Shown piece after piece: positions 2,290 to 43,900 of a stretch of 64,000 nt of DNA. The notes below the pieces were generated by a model. That model was not told where the DNA came from and did not search any database. It saw only the letters and a list, made by a program, of their open reading frames with translations. How positions within the stretch are numbered: position 1 is the stretch's first letter; each line of letters opens with the position of its first letter. A program made the translations under genes and the position numbers. The DNA is from Akkermansia muciniphila (GTDB lineage: Bacteria; Verrucomicrobiota; Verrucomicrobiia; Limisphaerales; UBA9464). The stretch lies in the NCBI GenBank assembly GCA_945883815.1, contig CAMCYJ010000010.1:1047-65046 (forward strand), written 5' to 3'.

Positions 2290-5430
<3,141 letters not shown>

Positions 5431-6440: not shown

Positions 6441-6929
6441 ATGACCACTCCAAAAAATCTTCGGCTCGTCGGGGCCGCTGTGGCGGCGGGTGCGGCCTTG
6501 GTGCTACTGTACCGGACCTGGTCGACCGATGGGGCGGGCCCCCGCGGATTCTTCTACGACCTGAGCGCCGGGCGGCTCTTCGAGGGCCCCATCGACGCCA
6601 TCCCACCGGTCGTCGGCGTCGACGGACCCGATGCCGACGGCTACCGCGCGGTGATCGTCTCGGTGAGCGGCAAGCCCGAGGAGCGCTCGTCGTGGCGTGT
6701 GGCCTACCTCGAGCGCTACTCGCCCGAATTGCAGCGGCAGATGGAGCAGGCCCGGCAGGGAGGCCCCGCCCCCACGATCCCACGCTCGGAAGCCCAGGCA
6801 CACCGTTGGGTGCGCCGGACCAACGACACCGAGTGGGTCCCCATCGCCTCCGAGGCCGGTGGGCGGATCGTCACAGAATGGGCCCAACCCGGACCCGACG
6901 GCATCACGCCGGTGGTCTGCACCCCTTGA
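6441..6929 (+). CDS. Hypothetical membrane-anchored protein
   Basis: ATG lies 7 nt after the pseudopilin stop. N-terminal anchor LRLVGAAVAAGAALVLLY. Third-position G/C is high by eye. No family recognised. Confidence 0.55.
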   Translation: MTTPKNLRLVGAAVAAGAALVLLYRTWSTDGAGPRGFFYDLSAGRLFEGPIDAIPPVVGVDGPDADGYRAVIVSVSGKPEERSSWRVAYLERYSPELQRQMEQARQGGPAPTIPRSEAQAHRWVRRTNDTEWVPIASEAGGRIVTEWAQPGPDGITPVVCTP

Positions 6930-7040
6930 AGTTCCGCGATCACGAACTCCCGACCTCACCCCCCATCTTCCCTGTGAACCAACCTCACCCTGAACTCCTA
7001 AACTCCTGATCTCTGAACCTAACTTGAACCTATTGAACCC

Positions 7041-10000
7041 ATGAAACCATCCCCATCCTCCCGTTGCCCGCAACCTGGGCGACTCCCGAAGGCCGCGCTC
7101 CTGGCCTGCCTGCTCGGCAGCCAAGCCCTCACCGCGCAATCCGTCGTCACCAGCCTTGAGAACTACTTCCCGGCCGAGGCCATCTCGGTCTCCTTCGCCG
7201 GAGGTCCTGGCAATTCCAAGGACTGGATCGGCGTCTATCCCGAAGGCGTGACGCCCGGATCGACCGGATCGACCATTTGGAACTACGTCAACGGCACGCG
7301 CACTGCGGGGGCCGGTCTCCGTGAGGGCTCCATGACCTTCGGCTCAGGCCTGAACCTCGCCGGCGTCTGGACCGCCTACCTCTTGGTCAATGACGGCTAC
7401 ACCGTAGTGACCAACGTCTCCTTCAATGTCCTCGCGCCGACAGCTCCGGCGGTCCGGCCCTCCGCCAACCGGTACGCCCCCGGCCAGACCATCAACGTCG
7501 GATTCACCAACGGTCCCGCCAACCCGAAGGACTGGATCGGCGTCTATCCCGAAGGAGTGACCCCGGGCTCGACCGGCTCGACCATCTGGAACTACGTGGA
7601 TGGAACTCAGGCGGGCAATGCAGGCAAGGCCAGCGGTTTGGTCACCTTCCAAAACGGCCTCACCGCCACTGGCAAGTACCGGGCCTACCTGCTGGAGAAC
7701 GACGGATACACGATCCTCGCCAGTGAGCCCATCACGGTGGCCGTCCCGACGATCAGCGGGGCGAGCGTGGTTTCCACGAGCCCGGCCCCCGACTCTACCG
7801 GAGTGGCGCCCAACGCCCCTTACCGGGCCGAACTGACCAACGGCATCGCGCTCGCGTCGATCCGCCTGTCGTTGAACGGCAAAGCCGCGGCAGCCACGGT
7901 AACTGGCACCGCCCAGCAAGCCTCGGTGACCTTCACCAACGCACTGTTGCTAGCCCCGGCCTCGTCGAACGTCTATGTGCTGTCCTTCTCGGACACCGGT
8001 GTCCCGGCCAAGACCTTCAACCTCACCAATGCGTTCCAGGTGGCCAACTACCGGAACATCGAACTACCCACACCTTTGGTGTTCGTTAACTTCGATGCAA
8101 TTGCCGAGGGACAGGTGCCTGCCGGTTGGACGCGCAAGTCCTACGTCGAGATCGTCAACCCCGAGCTCGACTTCGGCAACCTCGGCTCCGCGGCGTATGC
8201 CGATTGGACCACCGTGGAGACCTCGCGGTTCAACGGCAGCTTCGTCACCTACAACAATCCGGAAAACCCCGCTGACTGGGGGACGGACTACCAACGCGTG
8301 AACGTGCCCAATCCGGCCAACGTGGTGAACGGGCAAATCCTGAATGAACCGCTGGCCAAGGGCCGTTTCCTCTTCAGCACCTCGGGATACTCGGTCGGCC
8401 GCAGCCAGGTGATGCACATCACGACGCCCGATTACAACTTCTCGGGTCGTACCAACGTGCAAGTGGCCTTCAAGAGCCTCTGGGAGCAGAACCAGGACAG
8501 TATCGGAGCCTTGGAATACTCCATCAATGGCGGCGCCGATTGGCTGCCGTTGGTTTACCTCATCGATGAAGCGGACCTGGTCAAAGCAGAGGACGGATCC
8601 TTGGACGCCGAGGCGACCCTTAACAAGGAACACGGCGACGTGGCCAACTACACCGACGACGCTGGAACTGTCATCGGCGGCACCTACGGTGCCTTCATCG
8701 GTGCTCCGATCACCGCCAGCTTGGCCCCGTTCATCCAGGGCCGCGTCAATGACAACCGCTTCGAGTCCAAGCGCTACGAGCTCTTCCGAGTGAGCGGTGC
8801 CGACAACCAATCCAAGGTGCGCTTCCGCTTCATTCAAGCCGGCACCGACAGCTGGTACTGGGGTATCGACGACTTCGGTCTCTACGCCGGCGCTGCTTCG
8901 AGCACCAACACTCCGTCCGAACCGGCCAAGCCGTTCGCCTTGCTGGACATCAACAACAAGGTGGTCTCGACCGTGGTCACCAACGCCGACGGATCGTTCA
9001 CCCTCACGGCTGGAGGCGGTGATACTTGGGACAATGCCGACTCGTTCTCCTACCTGCACCAGCAGCGGAGCGGTGACTTCGACGTGCGCGTCCAAGTGCT
9101 TTCGGTCGAAGCCGACGATGCAGCATCGACTCAGAAGAGCGCCAAGGGCGCCTTGCATATCCGGGCCAATCTCACTCCGGGCAGCCCGAACATCCAACTG
9201 AACGCCACTCCCATCGCGGGCGCCAATTACGTGGAGACGATTTTCCGCCCGGTCCAGGACGGCGGCACTGATGATCCTCCGAGCGGCTCCATCAAGGTGG
9301 ATTCCGGTCCCGGTGAGGGCACTTACCGCCCGAATGACGGTGACTTGTTCCCGGTCTGGTTCCGGGCCCGCCGCGAACGCAACCTGTTCCAGACGTTCGT
9401 TTCCGCCAACGGCATCCAATGGAAGGTCGTCGCCGAGTACCAGATGGACACCTTCCCGACCAATGTCTATGTCGGCCTAGGCGCCGTGGCACACATCGGC
9501 TCCAACGAGGATGCGGCCAACCGCGTCAGGGCCACGTTCAAGAGCTTCGGGAATACTCCGCTGCCTCCCGCGGCGACGGTCGCCGGCGCACCAGCCGGCA
9601 CCAATTCTCCCGGTACCTACCCTGACGGCACGGTGACGGCCGTGAACTGGCACGTCAGCCTCCCGACCGACGGCATTGGCTACACCGCCGACAAGACCCA
9701 GAGCGGCCCCATCGTCTGGAACACGGGCGGTTTCGGAACCATTTCCCGCGACTTGCTCTTGAGCATCAACGGAGAGCAAGGCCCCCTGTCCTTCGGCATC
9801 GCCCGCTACGCGGCTGGCGCTCTCGACTTCGGCATCGGCGTCCGCAATGCAACTGCGGCCCAGGAGAACCTCGGGCCCTATTCGAACCCCACGCGCCAGC
9901 GTTATGCGGCACCGGAAGCCAGCGTGCCCTCGGCGCAATCCTGGTTCCCCTCGCCGAAGCACGGCGTTCTGGTGACCTCCACCCGCAAGGTGGGATCGCT

Positions 10001-11317: not shown

Positions 11318-14300
11318 ATGAAGTGCCCTCGAACCATTCACCCGATGATTTGGCAAACGCTCTGGGTGTTTTGGATGCTGGGCACGTCGGGGCTCGAGGC
11401 TCGGACTTGGCAAGCAATTCCAGAAGGGCGGCAACGGCAACTGGTCGTACCTCCAGATGGGGGCACAGGGTTCAAAACGGTACCCTCGGGACGCAGCGGG
11501 ATTCTGTTCACCAACTCGCTCGACGGGATGCGGGCCATCACCAACCAGATTTTCCACAATGGCTCTGGTGTCGCGGCCGGCGACATCGACGGGGACGGAC
11601 GTTGCGATCTCTACTTCGGGAGCATCGAGGGCGGAAATCGCCTCTATCGCAACCTCGGGGATTGGCGATTCGTCGACATCGCGACCACCGCGGGCGTGAG
11701 CTGCAGTGGGCTACCAACCACCGGAGTGGCCCTAGCCGATGTCGACGGTGACAGCGATCTGGATCTGGTGGTCAATACGATCGGCTTCGGCACTCGACTC
11801 TTCGTCAATGATGGACACGGCCAATTTCGGGATACCACCGAGCAAGCCGGGCTGAACAGGGCCTCGGGTGCCATGTCGGTCTCCCTAGGCGACATCGACC
11901 GGGACGGCGACATCGACCTCTACGTGGCCAATTACCGGAGCACCACGCTGCGCGATGAACCCGATACCCGCTTCCGCCTGAAGCGCGAGGGCGCAGCTAC
12001 GATCATCACCGCCGTCAACGAACGCCCGGTGACCGAGCCCGACTTGGTGGGCCGATTCAGCTTTGATCCATCCACTGGAATCGTCGAGCACGGCCAACCC
12101 GATGTGTTGTACCGGAACAACGGTCGCGGTGTCTTCAGCCGGGTGCCCTGGGATCAAGGGGACTTCGTCGATACACAAGGCCGACCCTCGGCAGTTCCTT
12201 TTGATTGGGGACTTTGCGGTCTTTTGCGCGATCTCGACGGGGACGGCAGTCCCGATCTCTATGTTTGCAACGACTTCGCGTCACCGGATCGGGTGTGGAT
12301 GAACCGTGGCGATGGACGGTTCAGGTCCATCCCAGACGCGGCCATTCGGACCACGAGCCGATTCTCGATGGGGGTCGACGTCGCGGACATCGACCGGGAT
12401 GGCGACGACGACATTCTCGTCCTCGACATGCTCAGCCGCGATCACCGCCGGCGTCAGGTACAAACCGGCAGCGGCAAGGCTCCGATGGTCGAAGGCAATT
12501 CCGGCCGCGCCCAGGTGATGCGCAACACCCTGCTGCTGAACCGAGGTGACGGATCCTACGCCGAGATCGGCCAACTGGCCGGTGTGCAGGCCTCGGAGTG
12601 GTCGTGGACGCCCCGGTTTCTCGACGTGGATCTGGACGGATACGAAGACCTGCTGGTCTCCAACGGCAATTTGCGGGACGCCCAGAACGTGGACTTCCTG
12701 CGAGAGGTGGAGAACCTAAAAAGCGATCGGCGCCTTTCCCGCTTGGAGAGACTCCAACTGAGGGCCCGATTCCCCCGATTGGACACACCGAACTGCGCAT
12801 TCCGAAACACAGGCCGGTTGGGATTCGAAGAGGTGGGCCGAGCCTGGGGGTTTGATGTGGCAGGAATCTGCCCTGGAATGGCTGTGGCCGACCTCGATGG
12901 CGACGGCGACCTCGATGTGGTGCTCAACCAGCTCGACGGACCGGCAGTCTTGTTACGCAACGATTCAATCGCAACTCGCCTGGCAGTGCGGCTGAAAGGG
13001 CGGATGGGCAACAGCCAGGGTATTGGCGCCAAGGTCTTCTGCCTGGGAGGACCCGTCTCTCAGAGCCAGTCGATCACCTGCGGCGGCAAATACCTTTCTG
13101 CAGACGAGGCTTTACTGGTTTTCGCTGCTGGCAGCCCAACCAACCGTTTGAAGCTCGAGGTCCATTGGCCCAGCGGGCACCGAACGCGATTCGATCAGGC
13201 GCAGCCCAATTCCCTCGTTGAACTCGAAGAACCGGCCGGCCCTGCACCGGCACGCCCCATGATCAAGCCACCTCCAGAACCCCTTCTTCGGGAAGTGCAC
13301 CTGACGCAGGGTTGGACCCATCAGGCCGACTCTCCCCAACAAGAATCCGCTCAGTTGCTGATGCCCCGCCGTTCGGACAACCCGGCACCGGGGGTCGGTT
13401 GGTTTGATTGGGACCGGGATGGCTGGGAAGACCTGATCATCGGAGCAGGAAACCGGGCTGCACACGCCCTTTTTCGCAACCTCGGCAACGGTGGTTTTCA
13501 GGCAGTTTCCACGCCCAACGACGAAGGATTACGATCTAGGACGCCCGGCCTGTTGGGCTGGCCGACGCCAACGGGGCCTTCAAAATTGCCAGCCCATTCC
13601 GGCCCCATGGCCCTCGGCGATGTGGATGGGGACGGCGATCTCGATCTTTTCGTCGGCGGAACGGCGGTCCCAGGCCGTTATCCGGAGGCGACCGCATCGC
13701 TCCTTTTTATTAATGAGAACGGCCAGTGGACTCCCGCCACGGGTTACGACGGCCTGCTAAAGGGGGTGGGTTTGGTGAATGGCGCCGTGTGGTCCGACCT
13801 CGACGGGGATGGATTTCCGGAACTGGCCCTCGCCCGCGAATGGGCTCCGCCAGCGATCTTCAAAAATCGTCGCGGGCGCCTCGAAAGCAACTCGCCTGAC
13901 TGGAATCTCAACGCATTCTCCGGGTTGTGGACCGGAATTGCCGCCGGGGACTTCGATGGCGACGGCCGCATGGATCTGGCCTTGGGCAACCGGGGACGGA
14001 ACCACCGCTGGAACGCCTCGACCGAGAATCCCCTCCAACTCTTCTTTGGCGACATTCGCGGAGACGGTTCAGTGGAGTCCATCGAGGCGCATCGAGACCC
14101 GGCGTCGGGGCATCTGGTGCCATGGTTGACTTTGGATGAACTGGGAATGGCCTTTCCATCCGTGCTGCAGCGATTCCGCCGGGCCGAGGACTATGGCCGG
14201 GCCCGGCTTGAAGACATCCTGGCCGAGAGTTTCCGAAGCATGAAATCGCTCGAGATCACGACTCTTGATTCCATGGTGTTCCTCAATCGAGGTTCATCGT

Positions 14301-14911
14301 GGGAGGCCCATGCATTGCCCATCGAAGCCCAATTCGCCCCAGTTTACGGATTGGCGGCCGGCGACCTGGATGGGGATGGTCGAATCGATTTGCTACTCAA
14401 CCACGGTTCCTGGCCCACGGACTCTGACATCGGTGGTCACCATGCCGGGTTGGGGTTGCTCTGCCTGGGTGAGGGTCGCGGCACCTTCCGGGCCCTGTCA
14501 GCCGATGAGAGCGGGCTGCGGATTCCGGGTGAGGGACGAGGCCTGGCCCTCGCGGACTACGACCACGACGGTCGCTGGGACGTGGCCGCTGGACAGCGTG
14601 AAGGACCCCTGCTGCTGTTTCGAAACCACCAAGCCCGAGCGGGCCTGCGGGTCGTCCTCGAAGGAGGGACAGGGAACCCCGACGGGGTGGGCGCTCAGGT
14701 GCGACTGCGGGGGCACAGTGGCTTCGGTCCCATGTCGGAAATCCACGGCGGCAGCGGACACTACTCCCAGAACGCCGCCACCGTGGTGATGACACTCCCG
14801 GAGCTTTGTTTAGAAGTCTGGGTCCGATGGCCGGGTGGGCGGATCACCCGCAAAGAAATTACCCCCGACCTCGGGGAGATTCGGTTGAAGCACGGCGTCC
14901 CAGACCGATAA
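11318..14911 (+). CDS. CRTAC1/ASPIC-UnbV family protein with FG-GAP/VCBS repeats
   Basis: Start moved to MKCPRTIHPMIWQTLWVFWML (signal-like). Repeated DxDGDG loops (DIDGDGRCDLYF, DVDGDSDLDLVV, DIDRDGDIDLYV, DLDGDGDLDVVL). The UnbV_ASPIC-like GVGAQV...GGSG(H)YSQN pattern occurs mid-protein and at the C-terminus. Confidence 0.85.
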   Translation: MKCPRTIHPMIWQTLWVFWMLGTSGLEARTWQAIPEGRQRQLVVPPDGGTGFKTVPSGRSGILFTNSLDGMRAITNQIFHNGSGVAAGDIDGDGRCDLYFGSIEGGNRLYRNLGDWRFVDIATTAGVSCSGLPTTGVALADVDGDSDLDLVVNTIGFGTRLFVNDGHGQFRDTTEQAGLNRASGAMSVSLGDIDRDGDIDLYVANYRSTTLRDEPDTRFRLKREGAATIITAVNERPVTEPDLVGRFSFDPSTGIVEHGQPDVLYRNNGRGVFSRVPWDQGDFVDTQGRPSAVPFDWGLCGLLRDLDGDGSPDLYVCNDFASPDRVWMNRGDGRFRSIPDAAIRTTSRFSMGVDVADIDRDGDDDILVLDMLSRDHRRRQVQTGSGKAPMVEGNSGRAQVMRNTLLLNRGDGSYAEIGQLAGVQASEWSWTPRFLDVDLDGYEDLLVSNGNLRDAQNVDFLREVENLKSDRRLSRLERLQLRARFPRLDTPNCAFRNTGRLGFEEVGRAWGFDVAGICPGMAVADLDGDGDLDVVLNQLDGPAVLLRNDSIATRLAVRLKGRMGNSQGIGAKVFCLGGPVSQSQSITCGGKYLSADEALLVFAAGSPTNRLKLEVHWPSGHRTRFDQAQPNSLVELEEPAGPAPARPMIKPPPEPLLREVHLTQGWTHQADSPQQESAQLLMPRRSDNPAPGVGWFDWDRDGWEDLIIGAGNRAAHALFRNLGNGGFQAVSTPNDEGLRSRTPGLLGWPTPTGPSKLPAHSGPMALGDVDGDGDLDLFVGGTAVPGRYPEATASLLFINENGQWTPATGYDGLLKGVGLVNGAVWSDLDGDGFPELALAREWAPPAIFKNRRGRLESNSPDWNLNAFSGLWTGIAAGDFDGDGRMDLALGNRGRNHRWNASTENPLQLFFGDIRGDGSVESIEAHRDPASGHLVPWLTLDELGMAFPSVLQRFRRAEDYGRARLEDILAESFRSMKSLEITTLDSMVFLNRGSSWEAHALPIEAQFAPVYGLAAGDLDGDGRIDLLLNHGSWPTDSDIGGHHAGLGLLCLGEGRGTFRALSADESGLRIPGEGRGLALADYDHDGRWDVAAGQREGPLLLFRNHQARAGLRVVLEGGTGNPDGVGAQVRLRGHSGFGPMSEIHGGSGHYSQNAATVVMTLPELCLEVWVRWPGGRITRKEITPDLGEIRLKHGVPDR

Positions 14912-30728: not shown

Positions 30729-30943
30729 TTCTCCGCAACGTCAAAACCCTGCGGATAGGCCGCTCTGAACCTCAGCAGGACGGCGGAGCGCAGAGGAACC
30801 GTCACAACCACGCCTCAGGACGGTCTGGAGGTATACGGCGTTCCTTCAGAACGCACCGTTCGTGCGCCATACCCGGGGTTTCACCCCGGGCTGGTATGCG
30901 GTGCCCCGTTGGGGCGCTCCGAACGCCGCTCTTTCCCCGAGCC

Positions 30944-31050
30944 TTCCTGCGAGGGTGCGAGCGCAGGCCTGATCCCGCGGAGCGCCCCAAATACGCGAAG
31001 CGGAGCGGGATCGGGCCGCAGTGAGCCTTGGAGGCGATCAACTCAACGAA
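30944..31050. repeat. Single (partial) copy of the ~137-bp hairpin element family
   Basis: CCCCGAGCCTTCC...GCGCAGGCCTGATCCCGCGGAGCGCC...GCGGAGCGGGATCGGGCCGCAGTGAGCCTTGGAGGCGATCAAC aligns by eye with the units at 32925-33292 and 43657-43900. Confidence 0.65.
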
Positions 31051-32924: not shown

Positions 32925-33292
32925 CCCAACCCCTCGCGCGCACAGCGCGAAAGCCCCATCCTCCCCAGAACCTCCTCAGCGAGCGCAGGCCCGATCCCGC
33001 GGAGCGCCCCATACGCCAAGCGGAGCGGGATCAGGCCGCAGCAAGCCTTGGAGGCAAACAACAAAATCCCCTCGCGCAAAGCGCGAAAGCCCTCCCCTCC
33101 CCAGAGCCTCCTCAGCGAGCGCAGGCCCGATCCCGCGGAGCGCCAAAACACGCCCAAGCGAAGCGGGATCGGTCCGCAGCGAGCCTTGGAGGCGAACAAC
33201 AAAATCCCTCGCGCAAAGCGCGAAAGCCCCATCCTCCCCAGAGCCTCCTCAGCGAGCGCAGGACCGATCCCGCGGAGCGCCCCAACTCTTCA
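32925..33292. repeat. Tandem array (~2.6 copies) of a 137-138 bp hairpin-rich non-coding element
   Basis: CTCGCGC anchors at 32933, 33071 and 33208. Each unit has the mini-hairpin TCGCGC-loop-GCGCGA and the inverted repeat CCGATCCCGC...GCGGGATC(G/A)G nested in GCCTCC...GGAGGC. Confidence 0.85.
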
Positions 33293-43656: not shown

Positions 43657-43900
43657 CCAGATCCGAACAAACCCATCCCCTCGCGCATAGCGCGAAAACC
43701 CCAACCTCCCCCGAGCTTCCCCAGCGAACGGAGGCTCGGTCCCGCGGAGCACACCCCTACCCAGCCGGAGCGGGATCGAGCCGCAGTGAGCCTAGGAAGC
43801 GAACAAACCCATCCCATCGCGCATAGCGCGAAAACCCCAACCTCCCCCGAGCTTCCCCAGCGAACGGAGGCTCGGTCCCGCGGAGCACACCCACCCAAGA
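43657..43900. repeat. Tandem array (~1.8 copies, period 136 bp) of a diverged member of the hairpin element family
   Basis: GAACAAACCCATCCC anchors at 43665 and 43801. Contains TCGCGC-ATA-GCGCGA and GGTCCCGC...GCGGGATC nested in GCTTCC...GGAAGC. Confidence 0.8.

Follow-up and report, generated by a model that had tools for sequence, protein, structure and literature searches.

R-A-L, a replication-polar hairpin repeat of Verrucomicrobiota with REPIN/BIME-like behaviour and a link to a RayT-like Y1 transposase

The described systems closest to the repeat reported here are the REPIN and BIME repeats of Enterobacteria and Pseudomonas, which are linked to RAYT (TnpA_REP) transposases of the Y1 (HUH) class. 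RayT-like Y1 transposases with a C-terminal helix-turn-helix (HTH), designated TIRYT and placed in subclass 2.1 (Quentin 2018, PMC6006769), are very common and, in contrast to classical RAYTs, are not known to have a high-copy partner sequence; that survey found no REP-like partner for subclass 2.1. Many repeats of TIRYT elements fit the consensus GGGGWSAS, and in Pseudomonas terminal inverted repeats (TIRs) are joined to unrelated stem-loop sequences in hundreds of copies (Di Nocera 2013, PMC3733652). We analysed a stretch of 64,000 nt, hereafter the window, from GenBank assembly GCA_945883815.1 (contig CAMCYJ010000010.1, positions 1,047 to 65,046; Akkermansia muciniphila, GTDB phylum Verrucomicrobiota), which has a G+C content of 63% and carries a tandem array near 33 kb. 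The repeated element, designated R-A-L, consists of an R arm, a mini-hairpin and a C-rich loop (together A) and an L arm, and it is a previously undescribed family with REP/BIME/REPIN-like behaviour rather than a dedicated RNA gene. The array is probably a local cluster of REPIN/BIME-like, non-autonomous elements that move as single-stranded DNA, with arrays being resized by recombination, and mobilisation by a Y1 transposase appears to be the best-supported mechanism.

Tandem Repeats Finder placed the array at 32937-33281, with a period of 137 nt, 2.5 copies, 90% matches and a score of 567. An original prediction, made from the window, had described units with the anchor CTCGCGC at 32933, 33071 and 33208, a mini-hairpin TCGCGC-loop-GCGCGA with the loops GCACA, AAA and, at a second locus at 43.7 kb, ATA, and 10-nt arms CCGATCCCGC/GCGGGATCGG nested in the outer pair GCCTCC/GGAGGC. 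At 43.7 kb the pairs were given as GCTTCC/GGAAGC and GGTCCCGC/GCGGGATC, with compensatory differences. All of these features were confirmed, the anchor positions exactly. The phase of the unit had been set wrongly: the 24-26 nt 'loop' between the 10-nt arms is an inter-unit spacer, and the mini-hairpin lies in the apical loop. Once the phase is corrected, the arms prove to be terminal inverted repeats whose near-perfect core measures 11-13 bp, and a short direct (G)CGG stands at the junctions, contrary to the earlier statement that neither TIRs nor a target-site duplication was evident. The R-A-L unit is 122-135 nt long and reads 5'-GCGG(C)A-GCGGGAYCGGNCC-GGAGCGAGC-...GGAAGC-linker-TCGCGC(N3-5)GCGCGA-AAG-C-rich tract-GCTTCC-CT-GCGAGCGCAGG-NCCGRTCCCGC-GGAGC-3'. 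In most copies R lies ~105 nt upstream of L, with the mini-hairpin and C-rich tract between them, and conservation ends directly after ...TCCCGCGGAGC (GGAGC); the family unit is therefore R-A-L.

A 27-nt degenerate L-arm pattern was present in more than 102 stretches of species-representative genome contigs. The R-A-L matches listed came from ~20 metagenome-assembled genomes, nearly all of them from freshwater Verrucomicrobiota; they lay on either strand and in many cases at the end of a contig. A hidden Markov model built from the window units gave 251 nhmmer matches in 685 kb of fetched sequence; the R arms are imperfect, and their counts rest on alignment since exact matching undercounts. 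The L-arm groups (n = 234) comprised 212 solo copies, 16 doublets and 6 triplets, with a spacing of 129-146 nt, and tight tandem arrays as in the window are therefore a minority form. Searches of the window with one unit (blastn and nhmmer) found seven R-A-L pieces at three loci, every one on the plus strand. No copies were found among IMG/VR viral contigs, and a phage origin was rejected. Rfam gave no match at the gathering score anywhere in the window, nor over the array at E ≤ 10, and matches near related loci were at chance level only; a known RNA family was rejected on this basis. Keyword searches of a paper collection found no description of the R-A-L family.

The hairpin was assessed in an alignment of 112 distinct copies, using our own 29-pair structure and 500 shuffles. 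RNAalifold recovered the R/L stem from these copies. In the 29-pair structure 92.6% of cells were paired, compared with 88.8 ± 0.2% in the shuffles, while slid controls paired in just 23-45%. Changes on both sides of a pair occurred in 162 cells against 58 ± 12 in the shuffles, none of which (0/500) reached 162, and the earlier claim of stem covariation holds in this alignment. The distal helix occurs as GGAAGC/GCTTCC, GGAGGC/GCCTCC, GAAGGC/GCCTTC, GGAACGT/ACGTTCC and GGAGAC/GTCTCC. Four G·A or A·G positions, at which an R-side G/A faces an L-side A/G, are kept in 89-109 of the 112 copies between invariant G-C pairs. The T/A column of GATC pairs no better than chance, and the mini-hairpin is conserved in sequence and hardly covaries.

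A stem of this kind could belong to a structured RNA, either a plus-strand small RNA (sRNA) or cis element, or an antisense G-rich hairpin RNA from a transposase left-end promoter. The significant covariation and the conserved non-Watson-Crick G·A positions flanked by invariant G-C pairs speak for this explanation, as do an excess of G·T over A·C pairs on the element strand (71 vs 36, free column excluded) and a plus-strand RNA fold with z = -4.3. The original prediction had argued from a G-U wobble that the plus strand is the one that folds; this was weakly borne out by the G·T excess, one column being without pairing constraint, and because the copies are not independent the excess is a weak hint. 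DNA folding gave similar energies for both strands and did not separate them. Covariation of the arms is, moreover, also expected of hairpin DNA elements, and the lack of an Rfam match also counts against an RNA. We regard a structured RNA as an unlikely explanation, and further evidence on it is given with the genomic position and the transposase below.

The number of units differs between close relatives of the window, among which loci on other contigs are identified by L numbers. The window carries 2.5 units of array 1, compared with 3.5 in L001 and 3.5 or more in L002, the latter two being contigs of near-identical strains (ENA ERZ27280282 and ERZ27280270). Array 2 has 1.5 units in the window vs 0.5 in L001 and in L089. 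Only the 43664..43750 part is present in L001 and in the ortholog L089, where flanks 91-94% identical to the window enclose an A-L piece only, and the unit at 43764..43886 is absent. The contigs L001 and L002 start or end inside or beside the arrays at 32.9 and 43.7 kb; the repeats break short-read assemblies.

Precise presence or absence of a unit was seen at two sites. A search for empty sites returned many false pairs, because the flanks contain other repeats, and left two clean cases: L058 (...CGGCGGCCGCGGGATCGG...GTTCCCGCGGAGCCCC) filled and L148 (...CGGCGGAGCCCT) empty, and L065 (...GCAGCGGGACCGG...GATCCCACGGAGCCCC) filled and L188 (...GCAGCGGAGCCCC) empty. From these two pairs the indel is therefore an R-A-L unit bounded by direct (G)CGG, with an empty site of GCGG|AGC, and the left junction is shifted by 6 nt from one case to the other. 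The empty sites fit insertion after a fixed tetranucleotide without duplication. They could also suggest a classical MITE, that is, a deletion derivative of a DDE insertion sequence (IS) moved by cut-and-paste through its TIRs and leaving a target-site duplication. The arms are indeed TIRs with a near-perfect core, the size of 122-135 nt is suitable, and the short direct (G)CGG stands at both junctions and once in the empty sites. Yet the supposed duplication is identical at every copy and overlaps the conserved ends, which argues against a random target duplication, and the shift of the left junction does not suit a MITE either. In addition, ORF clustering and Pfam checks across the ~1.6 Mb surrounding 250 copies found no IS with R-A-L ends; they turned up nothing but unrelated genes, a Mutator fragment and an IS110 element whose target is another repeat. 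A MITE origin is very improbable.

The orientation of R-A-L follows the strand asymmetry of the chromosome. With the elements masked, the flanking GC skew on the element strand was negative in 116 of 128 loci (mean -0.065), the element strand being the C-rich strand in ~90% of loci, and the window agrees with this polarity. The skew was negative inside co-oriented genes (76 of 82 cases) and inside opposed genes (60 of 76); because the sign is kept in genes of both orientations, it is not a gene-strand effect. When loci were grouped by at least 500 nt of similar flank, which corrects for orthology approximately only, 32 of 36 clusters had a negative skew (p = 2e-6). Clusters 0.9-10 kb apart were on the same strand in 27 cases and on different strands in 3. 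Leading strands are G-rich as a general rule, and by that rule the complement of R-A-L, which itself is on the C-rich strand, sits on the lagging-strand template. To our knowledge, strong replication polarity has no report for REPs. Such polarity is a signature of single-strand transposition of the IS200/IS605 type (PMC6006769). It is atypical of DDE MITEs and, being independent of gene orientation, stays unexplained if R-A-L is a structured RNA.

Strict polarity would also be compatible with a site maintained by the host, either a polar hairpin or cruciform for a host protein or a transcript stabiliser or terminator, which is inherited mostly vertically and changes by recombination only. BIMEs offer an analogy, since gyrase, IHF and Pol I use them. 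R-A-L is kept at the same intergenic site where the flanks are only 82-94% identical, as in L052 and L073 (flanks 82-83% identical), its mismatch pattern is conserved, and it is absent from viral contigs. Against this, no binding protein was identified, and at an orthologous site the element is ~94% identical where its flanks are 91-94% identical and so evolves no more slowly than they do. Hundreds of dispersed copies would, furthermore, still require a spreading mechanism. A host element is about as improbable as a structured RNA, and it is compatible with movement as single-stranded DNA rather than opposed to it.

A second repeat connects R-A-L to a transposase. Many R-A-L copies are followed, 36-80 nt further downstream and in matching orientation, by motif ii (...TAGTAAAGAGTGTCCCCTTTTGTGTAAATAGGTGGGACCGACCCC, ~45-65 nt), whose sequence matches the TIRYT consensus. 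Read on the transposase strand, motif ii contains TTTACA-N17-TACTAT, a near-consensus sigma-70 site facing R-A-L. Transposase homologs in other lineages (L109-L113) are flanked by inverted GGGGTCAGTCCCAC... / GGGGTCAGTCCCACAT(A/T)TTGACAC, which is the motif ii sequence. Motif ii is thus both the terminal inverted repeat of a TIRYT-type transposase unit and its left end, which bears the promoter. In a metagenome sample chosen by motif ii alone, 59 of 116 decidable copies had an R-A-L end no more than 260 nt upstream on the same strand, compared with 8 of 97 downstream. R-A-L copies chosen by their own sequence had motif ii downstream in 25 of 99 cases. Motif ii is also dispersed as many gene-less copies (L005, L010, L025 at 3060-3135, L036, L065, L075, L207 and others), and none of 35 lay between convergent genes.

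The transposase is a Y1_Tnp domain protein of 311-314 aa with a C-terminal HTH, found at three loci (41 bits vs a cutoff of 23), and it fits Y1 subclass 2.1. The NCBIfam RayT model matches it below cutoff (46.5 vs 80 bits), and JGI names its homologs RayT, with at least 7985 members at E ≤ 1e-20. TIRYT-type genes were located at L085:2244-3179(-), L087:5469-6404(-), L076:5885-6829(+) and L207:~6839-7770(+), and a recD-like helicase gene adjoins the transposase gene on its 3' side. One to three R-A-L copies lie directly upstream of the Y1_Tnp gene in L076, L085, L087, L172, L182, L207 and L213, interleaved with the gene's own left-end repeat; in L207, three units of left end, spacer and R-A-L stand immediately before the gene. 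A profile search of 12,516 ORFs near copies returned one TIRYT family and no other Y1 family, and a regular expression for the RayT motif gave the same genes. The earlier statement that no transposase is present is accordingly correct inside the window and wrong for the family, whose copies are physically linked to a RayT-like Y1 transposase through its terminal repeat.

Motif ii is itself a target of insertion. An IS110-family element (PF01548, PF02371) was inserted at the identical point (GTGGGACTGA|TAGGCATTAAG) in at least four contexts, L022:~304, L058:~3287, L085:~3495 and L204:~8005, and appears to target motif ii site-specifically. Some IS110-family elements likewise target REP sequences.

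In its most likely mode of action R-A-L is REPIN/BIME-like: once the DNA is single-stranded, its two arms fold together as a single long, imperfect hairpin, as folding and covariation show, and the element is gained or lost as a precise unit with its bounding (G)CGG, as the two GCGG|AGC site pairs show. The fixed polarity relative to replication skew suggests that the replication fork governs either how the element moves or how it survives. This resembles what is seen in single-strand 'peel-and-paste' elements, which HUH/Y1 transposases mobilise, and the best candidate enzyme would be the RayT-like Y1 transposase with a C-terminal HTH. Tandem arrays such as those in the window then gain and lose units, as the strain and ortholog comparisons show, most likely when direct copies recombine unequally or slip against each other.

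Several points weigh against this mechanism. The empty sites could equally result from deletion between GCGG microhomologies across the hairpin, and the 'empty' form is found in only 3 of 116 motif ii copies, so insertion itself was not observed. Given the lagging-strand polarity, the IS608 model predicts the opposite G·T/A·C bias, and the two lines of evidence disagree. The adjacency of R-A-L and transposase represents one orthologous locus plus dispersed composites, the sister clade L106-L108 shares the gene order without R-A-L beside the transposase, and the window has no transposase gene and no motif ii copy. The R and L arms (GCGGGAYCGG / CCGRTCCCGC) do not fit the TIRYT consensus and share only the core GGGAYCG with the TIR. 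The data sets also impose limits. Because the L-arm search pattern fixed most L-arm positions, L-arm invariance is largely forced and only R-side statements are free of ascertainment; many loci are orthologs, and the counts overstate independence; and the position statistics rest on our own crude gene caller, based on codon usage, which matches public gene calls in the window.

With this gene caller, none of 118 arrays lay inside genes. All four intergenic types occur, among them divergent (26), tandem (34) and convergent (11) regions. Downstream genes ran in the element's direction in 64 cases and against it in 32; for upstream genes the figures were 44 and 45. The neighbours of the two arrays in the window agree with the original prediction; they are genes of the alginate-lyase family, of an EF-hand protein, of an M28 peptidase and of one unknown family. 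The link it drew to exported hydrolases is a coincidence: 62 co-directional downstream genes fall into 51 Pfam families, in which multiples are orthologs, and a regulon of exported hydrolases was ruled out on that basis. R-A-L behaves as a repeat, not as a regulator. Among the options first offered (a REP/BIME-like element, a MITE-like element, or a cis-regulatory RNA or sRNA), the repeat-element part stands, the family being high-copy and intergenic, variable in copy number between strains and present or absent as a precise unit.

The excess of co-directional downstream genes (64 vs 32) would suit a structured RNA, as would the near-consensus sigma-70 site in motif ii, which points into R-A-L in ~25% of copies, and a mini-hairpin with T-run that reads as a minus-strand terminator in the window's subfamily. 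Copies nevertheless also lie between convergent genes, may run with or against their neighbours, and are flanked by genes without a functional relation to one another. There is no conserved plus-strand promoter or terminator, the facing promoter is confined to about one quarter of the copies, and truncated units, tandem arrays and changes in unit number between near-identical strains are unlike RNA genes. On the minus strand at 33069-33089 and 33206-33226, the mini-hairpin followed by GATTTTGTTG fits a terminator-like pattern; this T-run is missing from the main subfamilies elsewhere, and an intrinsic terminator was rejected on that account.

A role as structured RNA takes its most plausible form as an antisense transcript from the transposase left end. 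The stem formed by such a transcript would contain the conserved tandem G·A motifs, and the RNA would work together with the transposase or upon it. It is a long shot that this G-rich antisense transcript, made from a gene-less, promoter-bearing left end, or alternatively its single-stranded DNA counterpart, is the partner of the TIRYT Y1 transposase, whether as regulator, decoy or targeting RNA; if it is, it would provide a nucleic-acid cofactor for Y1 transposases of subclass 2.1.

The pieces in the window illustrate how the modules are combined, all on the plus strand. Array 1 begins with an A and L arm without an upstream R arm (32926..33005), in which A is the mini-hairpin TCGCGC-GCACA-GCGCGA with its C-rich tract. 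It is followed by the inter-unit spacer GCCCCATACGCCAA (33006..33019), which had been part of the predicted 'loop', and by a complete R-A-L of 122 nt at 33020..33141 (nhmmer E = 2.6e-26 against the 112-copy profile), whose R pairs with L in both RNA and DNA folds. A second spacer, GCCAAAACACGCCCAA (33142..33157), precedes the last unit, a complete R-A-L of 121 nt at 33158..33278 (E = 1.6e-29). Array 2 opens with a linker, A and an L arm (43664..43750), upstream of which no more than a decayed trace of R survives, and goes on with a complete R-A-L at 43764..43886 (E = 2.6e-26) with the arms GGGATCGAGCC/GGCTCGGTCCC and GGAAGC/GCTTCC. In each array the incomplete unit is therefore the first, lacking R, and the last unit is complete. 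Both multi-copy loci named in the original prediction are real, and a third, at 30900-31042, had been missed. It holds a diverged half element, A'-L, at 30900..30983 (nhmmer match 30920-30985, alignment and sequence), in which a mini-hairpin GCCCC-GTT-GGGGC (30903-30915) replaces TCGCGC-N3-GCGCGA and the L arm finishes ...GATCCCGCGGAGC at 30983. After a 16-nt spacer comes a solo R arm with linker (GCGGAGCGGGATCGGGCCGCAGTGAGCCTTGGAGGCGATCAAC) at 31000..31042 (nhmmer 31000-31046, model positions 3-49; repeat family D4), with no A-L after it.

Other repeats lie among the R-A-L copies. A separate interspersed family, the 'Y' repeat (GGTATACGGCGTTCCTTCAGAACGC...GGTATGCGGTGCCCCGTTGGGGCGC), was found by blastn at 30816..30925 on the plus strand, where it abuts and partly overlaps the diverged element at 30.9 kb. 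In the fetched loci blastn gave 36 more copies of it, many of them interleaved with R-A-L; the repeat has several internal hairpins and no Rfam match. In L050, with flanks 94% identical, an R-A-L array occupies the position held by the 'Y' repeat at 30816-30925. The stretch between the end of R-A-L and motif ii consists of a few recurrent 'spacer' families, for example CCCGTCGAGGCACCGATCCCCAGCGCCAGCCCTGGCACTCCGCCA, seen downstream of the L arm in L012, L018, L034, L044, L048, L054, L058, L059 and L085. The intergenic regions of R-A-L genomes therefore form a mosaic in which at least four repeat modules are combined. The many in-frame copies of GACxxCGAyGGxGACGG at window positions 11570-14400 (direct-repeat families D2, D5, D6, D9, D10 and D12) were read as Asp/Gly-rich repeats inside one coding region, with no relation to R-A-L.

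Additional candidates were tried and rejected. A coding repeat does not agree with a period of 137-138 nt, which is not a multiple of 3, and ORFs across the array are artefacts that cluster only via the repeat. A hammerhead-like CUGAU...GAAA in one subfamily has an incomplete core by inspection, and Rfam agrees. CRISPR, already dismissed in the original prediction, is excluded by the absence of unique spacers: the inter-unit spacers are 14-16 nt long, alike among themselves and similar to those in arrays of other genomes, as is the case for GCCCCATACGCCAA. Integron attC sites do not apply, the element ends being unlike GTTRRRY core sites, and Pfam scans of neighbouring genes showed no cas or integrase gene. 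A transposase between the inverted copies in L026 and L067 was also considered; only NHL, HigB/HTH and HipA genes and a Mutator fragment are there.

R-A-L, coupled to the TIRYT left end and polar with respect to replication, is a concrete candidate for the partner of subclass 2.1 transposases and provides a testable system in abundant uncultured lake bacteria. The repeats fragment Verrucomicrobiota metagenome assemblies, and strain-level length polymorphisms result from them. If R-A-L is merely a selfish repeat, its value lies mainly in annotation, and the copies should not be called genes or regulatory RNAs.

Among known repeats of similar length, ERIC/IRU (127 bp) and Correia (~155 bp) elements likewise form one long imperfect hairpin, are intergenic in either orientation and sometimes carry or adjoin promoters. 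Neither has sequence similarity to R-A-L. Correia elements differ in their TA duplication and IHF site, and ERIC has no known transposase and no reported replication polarity. MITEs of DDE insertion sequences share the TIRs, but the direct repeat of R-A-L is always (G)CGG and lies within the conserved ends. The IS200/IS605 elements and their gene-less PATEs (IS608, ISDra2) share hairpin DNA and an orientation apparently tied to the fork; precise gain or loss without random target duplication would be a further parallel, although the two R-A-L site pairs fit deletion as well as excision or insertion. A constant short sequence marks the left flank and right end in both cases, GCGG in R-A-L and TTAC and TCAA in IS608. 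The ends of IS200/IS605 elements are two separate subterminal hairpins on one strand, whereas those of R-A-L, whose cleavage sites are presumptive, pair into a single hairpin, and R-A-L copies have no internal tnpA or tnpB.

Motif ii is a repeat of the TIRtron and TIRYT kind; it flanks the transposase gene in inverted orientation and is dispersed singly and in clusters. R-A-L itself, unlike TIRtrons, lacks the TIRYT repeat consensus, and neither PMC3733652 nor PMC6006769 describes a TIRYT left end that is joined in a fixed way to a covarying hairpin of 125 nt. REPs are defined as imperfect palindromes of 20-40 nt with a GTAG or CGTC tag at one end (PMC3733652), whereas in the 112 copies the R-A-L arms are not palindromic, neither folds on itself, and there is no such tag, the 5' leader being GCGG(C)A. 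R-A-L thus fails the defining sequence features of REPs as it does those of DDE MITEs. Its hairpin is also much longer, with ~31 positions per arm and a 55-nt apical region that has its own mini-hairpin, and it keeps conserved G·A mismatches, unlike REPs. The associated transposase is of the TIRYT type (311 aa, C-terminal HTH) and, unlike RAYTs, scores below the NCBIfam RayT cutoff; the sequence motifs of E. coli BIMEs are absent. In organisation, R-A-L and the REPIN/BIME systems agree. Both are high-copy and strictly extragenic, with two inverted arms forming one hairpin, and both occur as singlets, doublets and tandem clusters with alternating linkers, vary in unit number between strains and are kept at orthologous sites; a physical link to a Y1 transposase gene preceded by repeat copies is seen for R-A-L at one orthologous locus. 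In a REPtron a cognate, usually single-copy RAYT gene has the same repeats at its flanks; beside the Y1_Tnp gene the R-A-L copies stand upstream, and a recD-like gene adjoins the 3' side. With more than 250 copies and 92.6% of cells paired, R-A-L has the inverted-doublet hairpin, high copy number and extragenic position of a REPIN. It likewise has the strain-variable mosaic of inverted units and few linkers of a BIME, in which the alternating L and R arms are separated by short spacers of 14-16 nt and by the long linker A, and motif ii, 'Y' repeats and spacers are interleaved.

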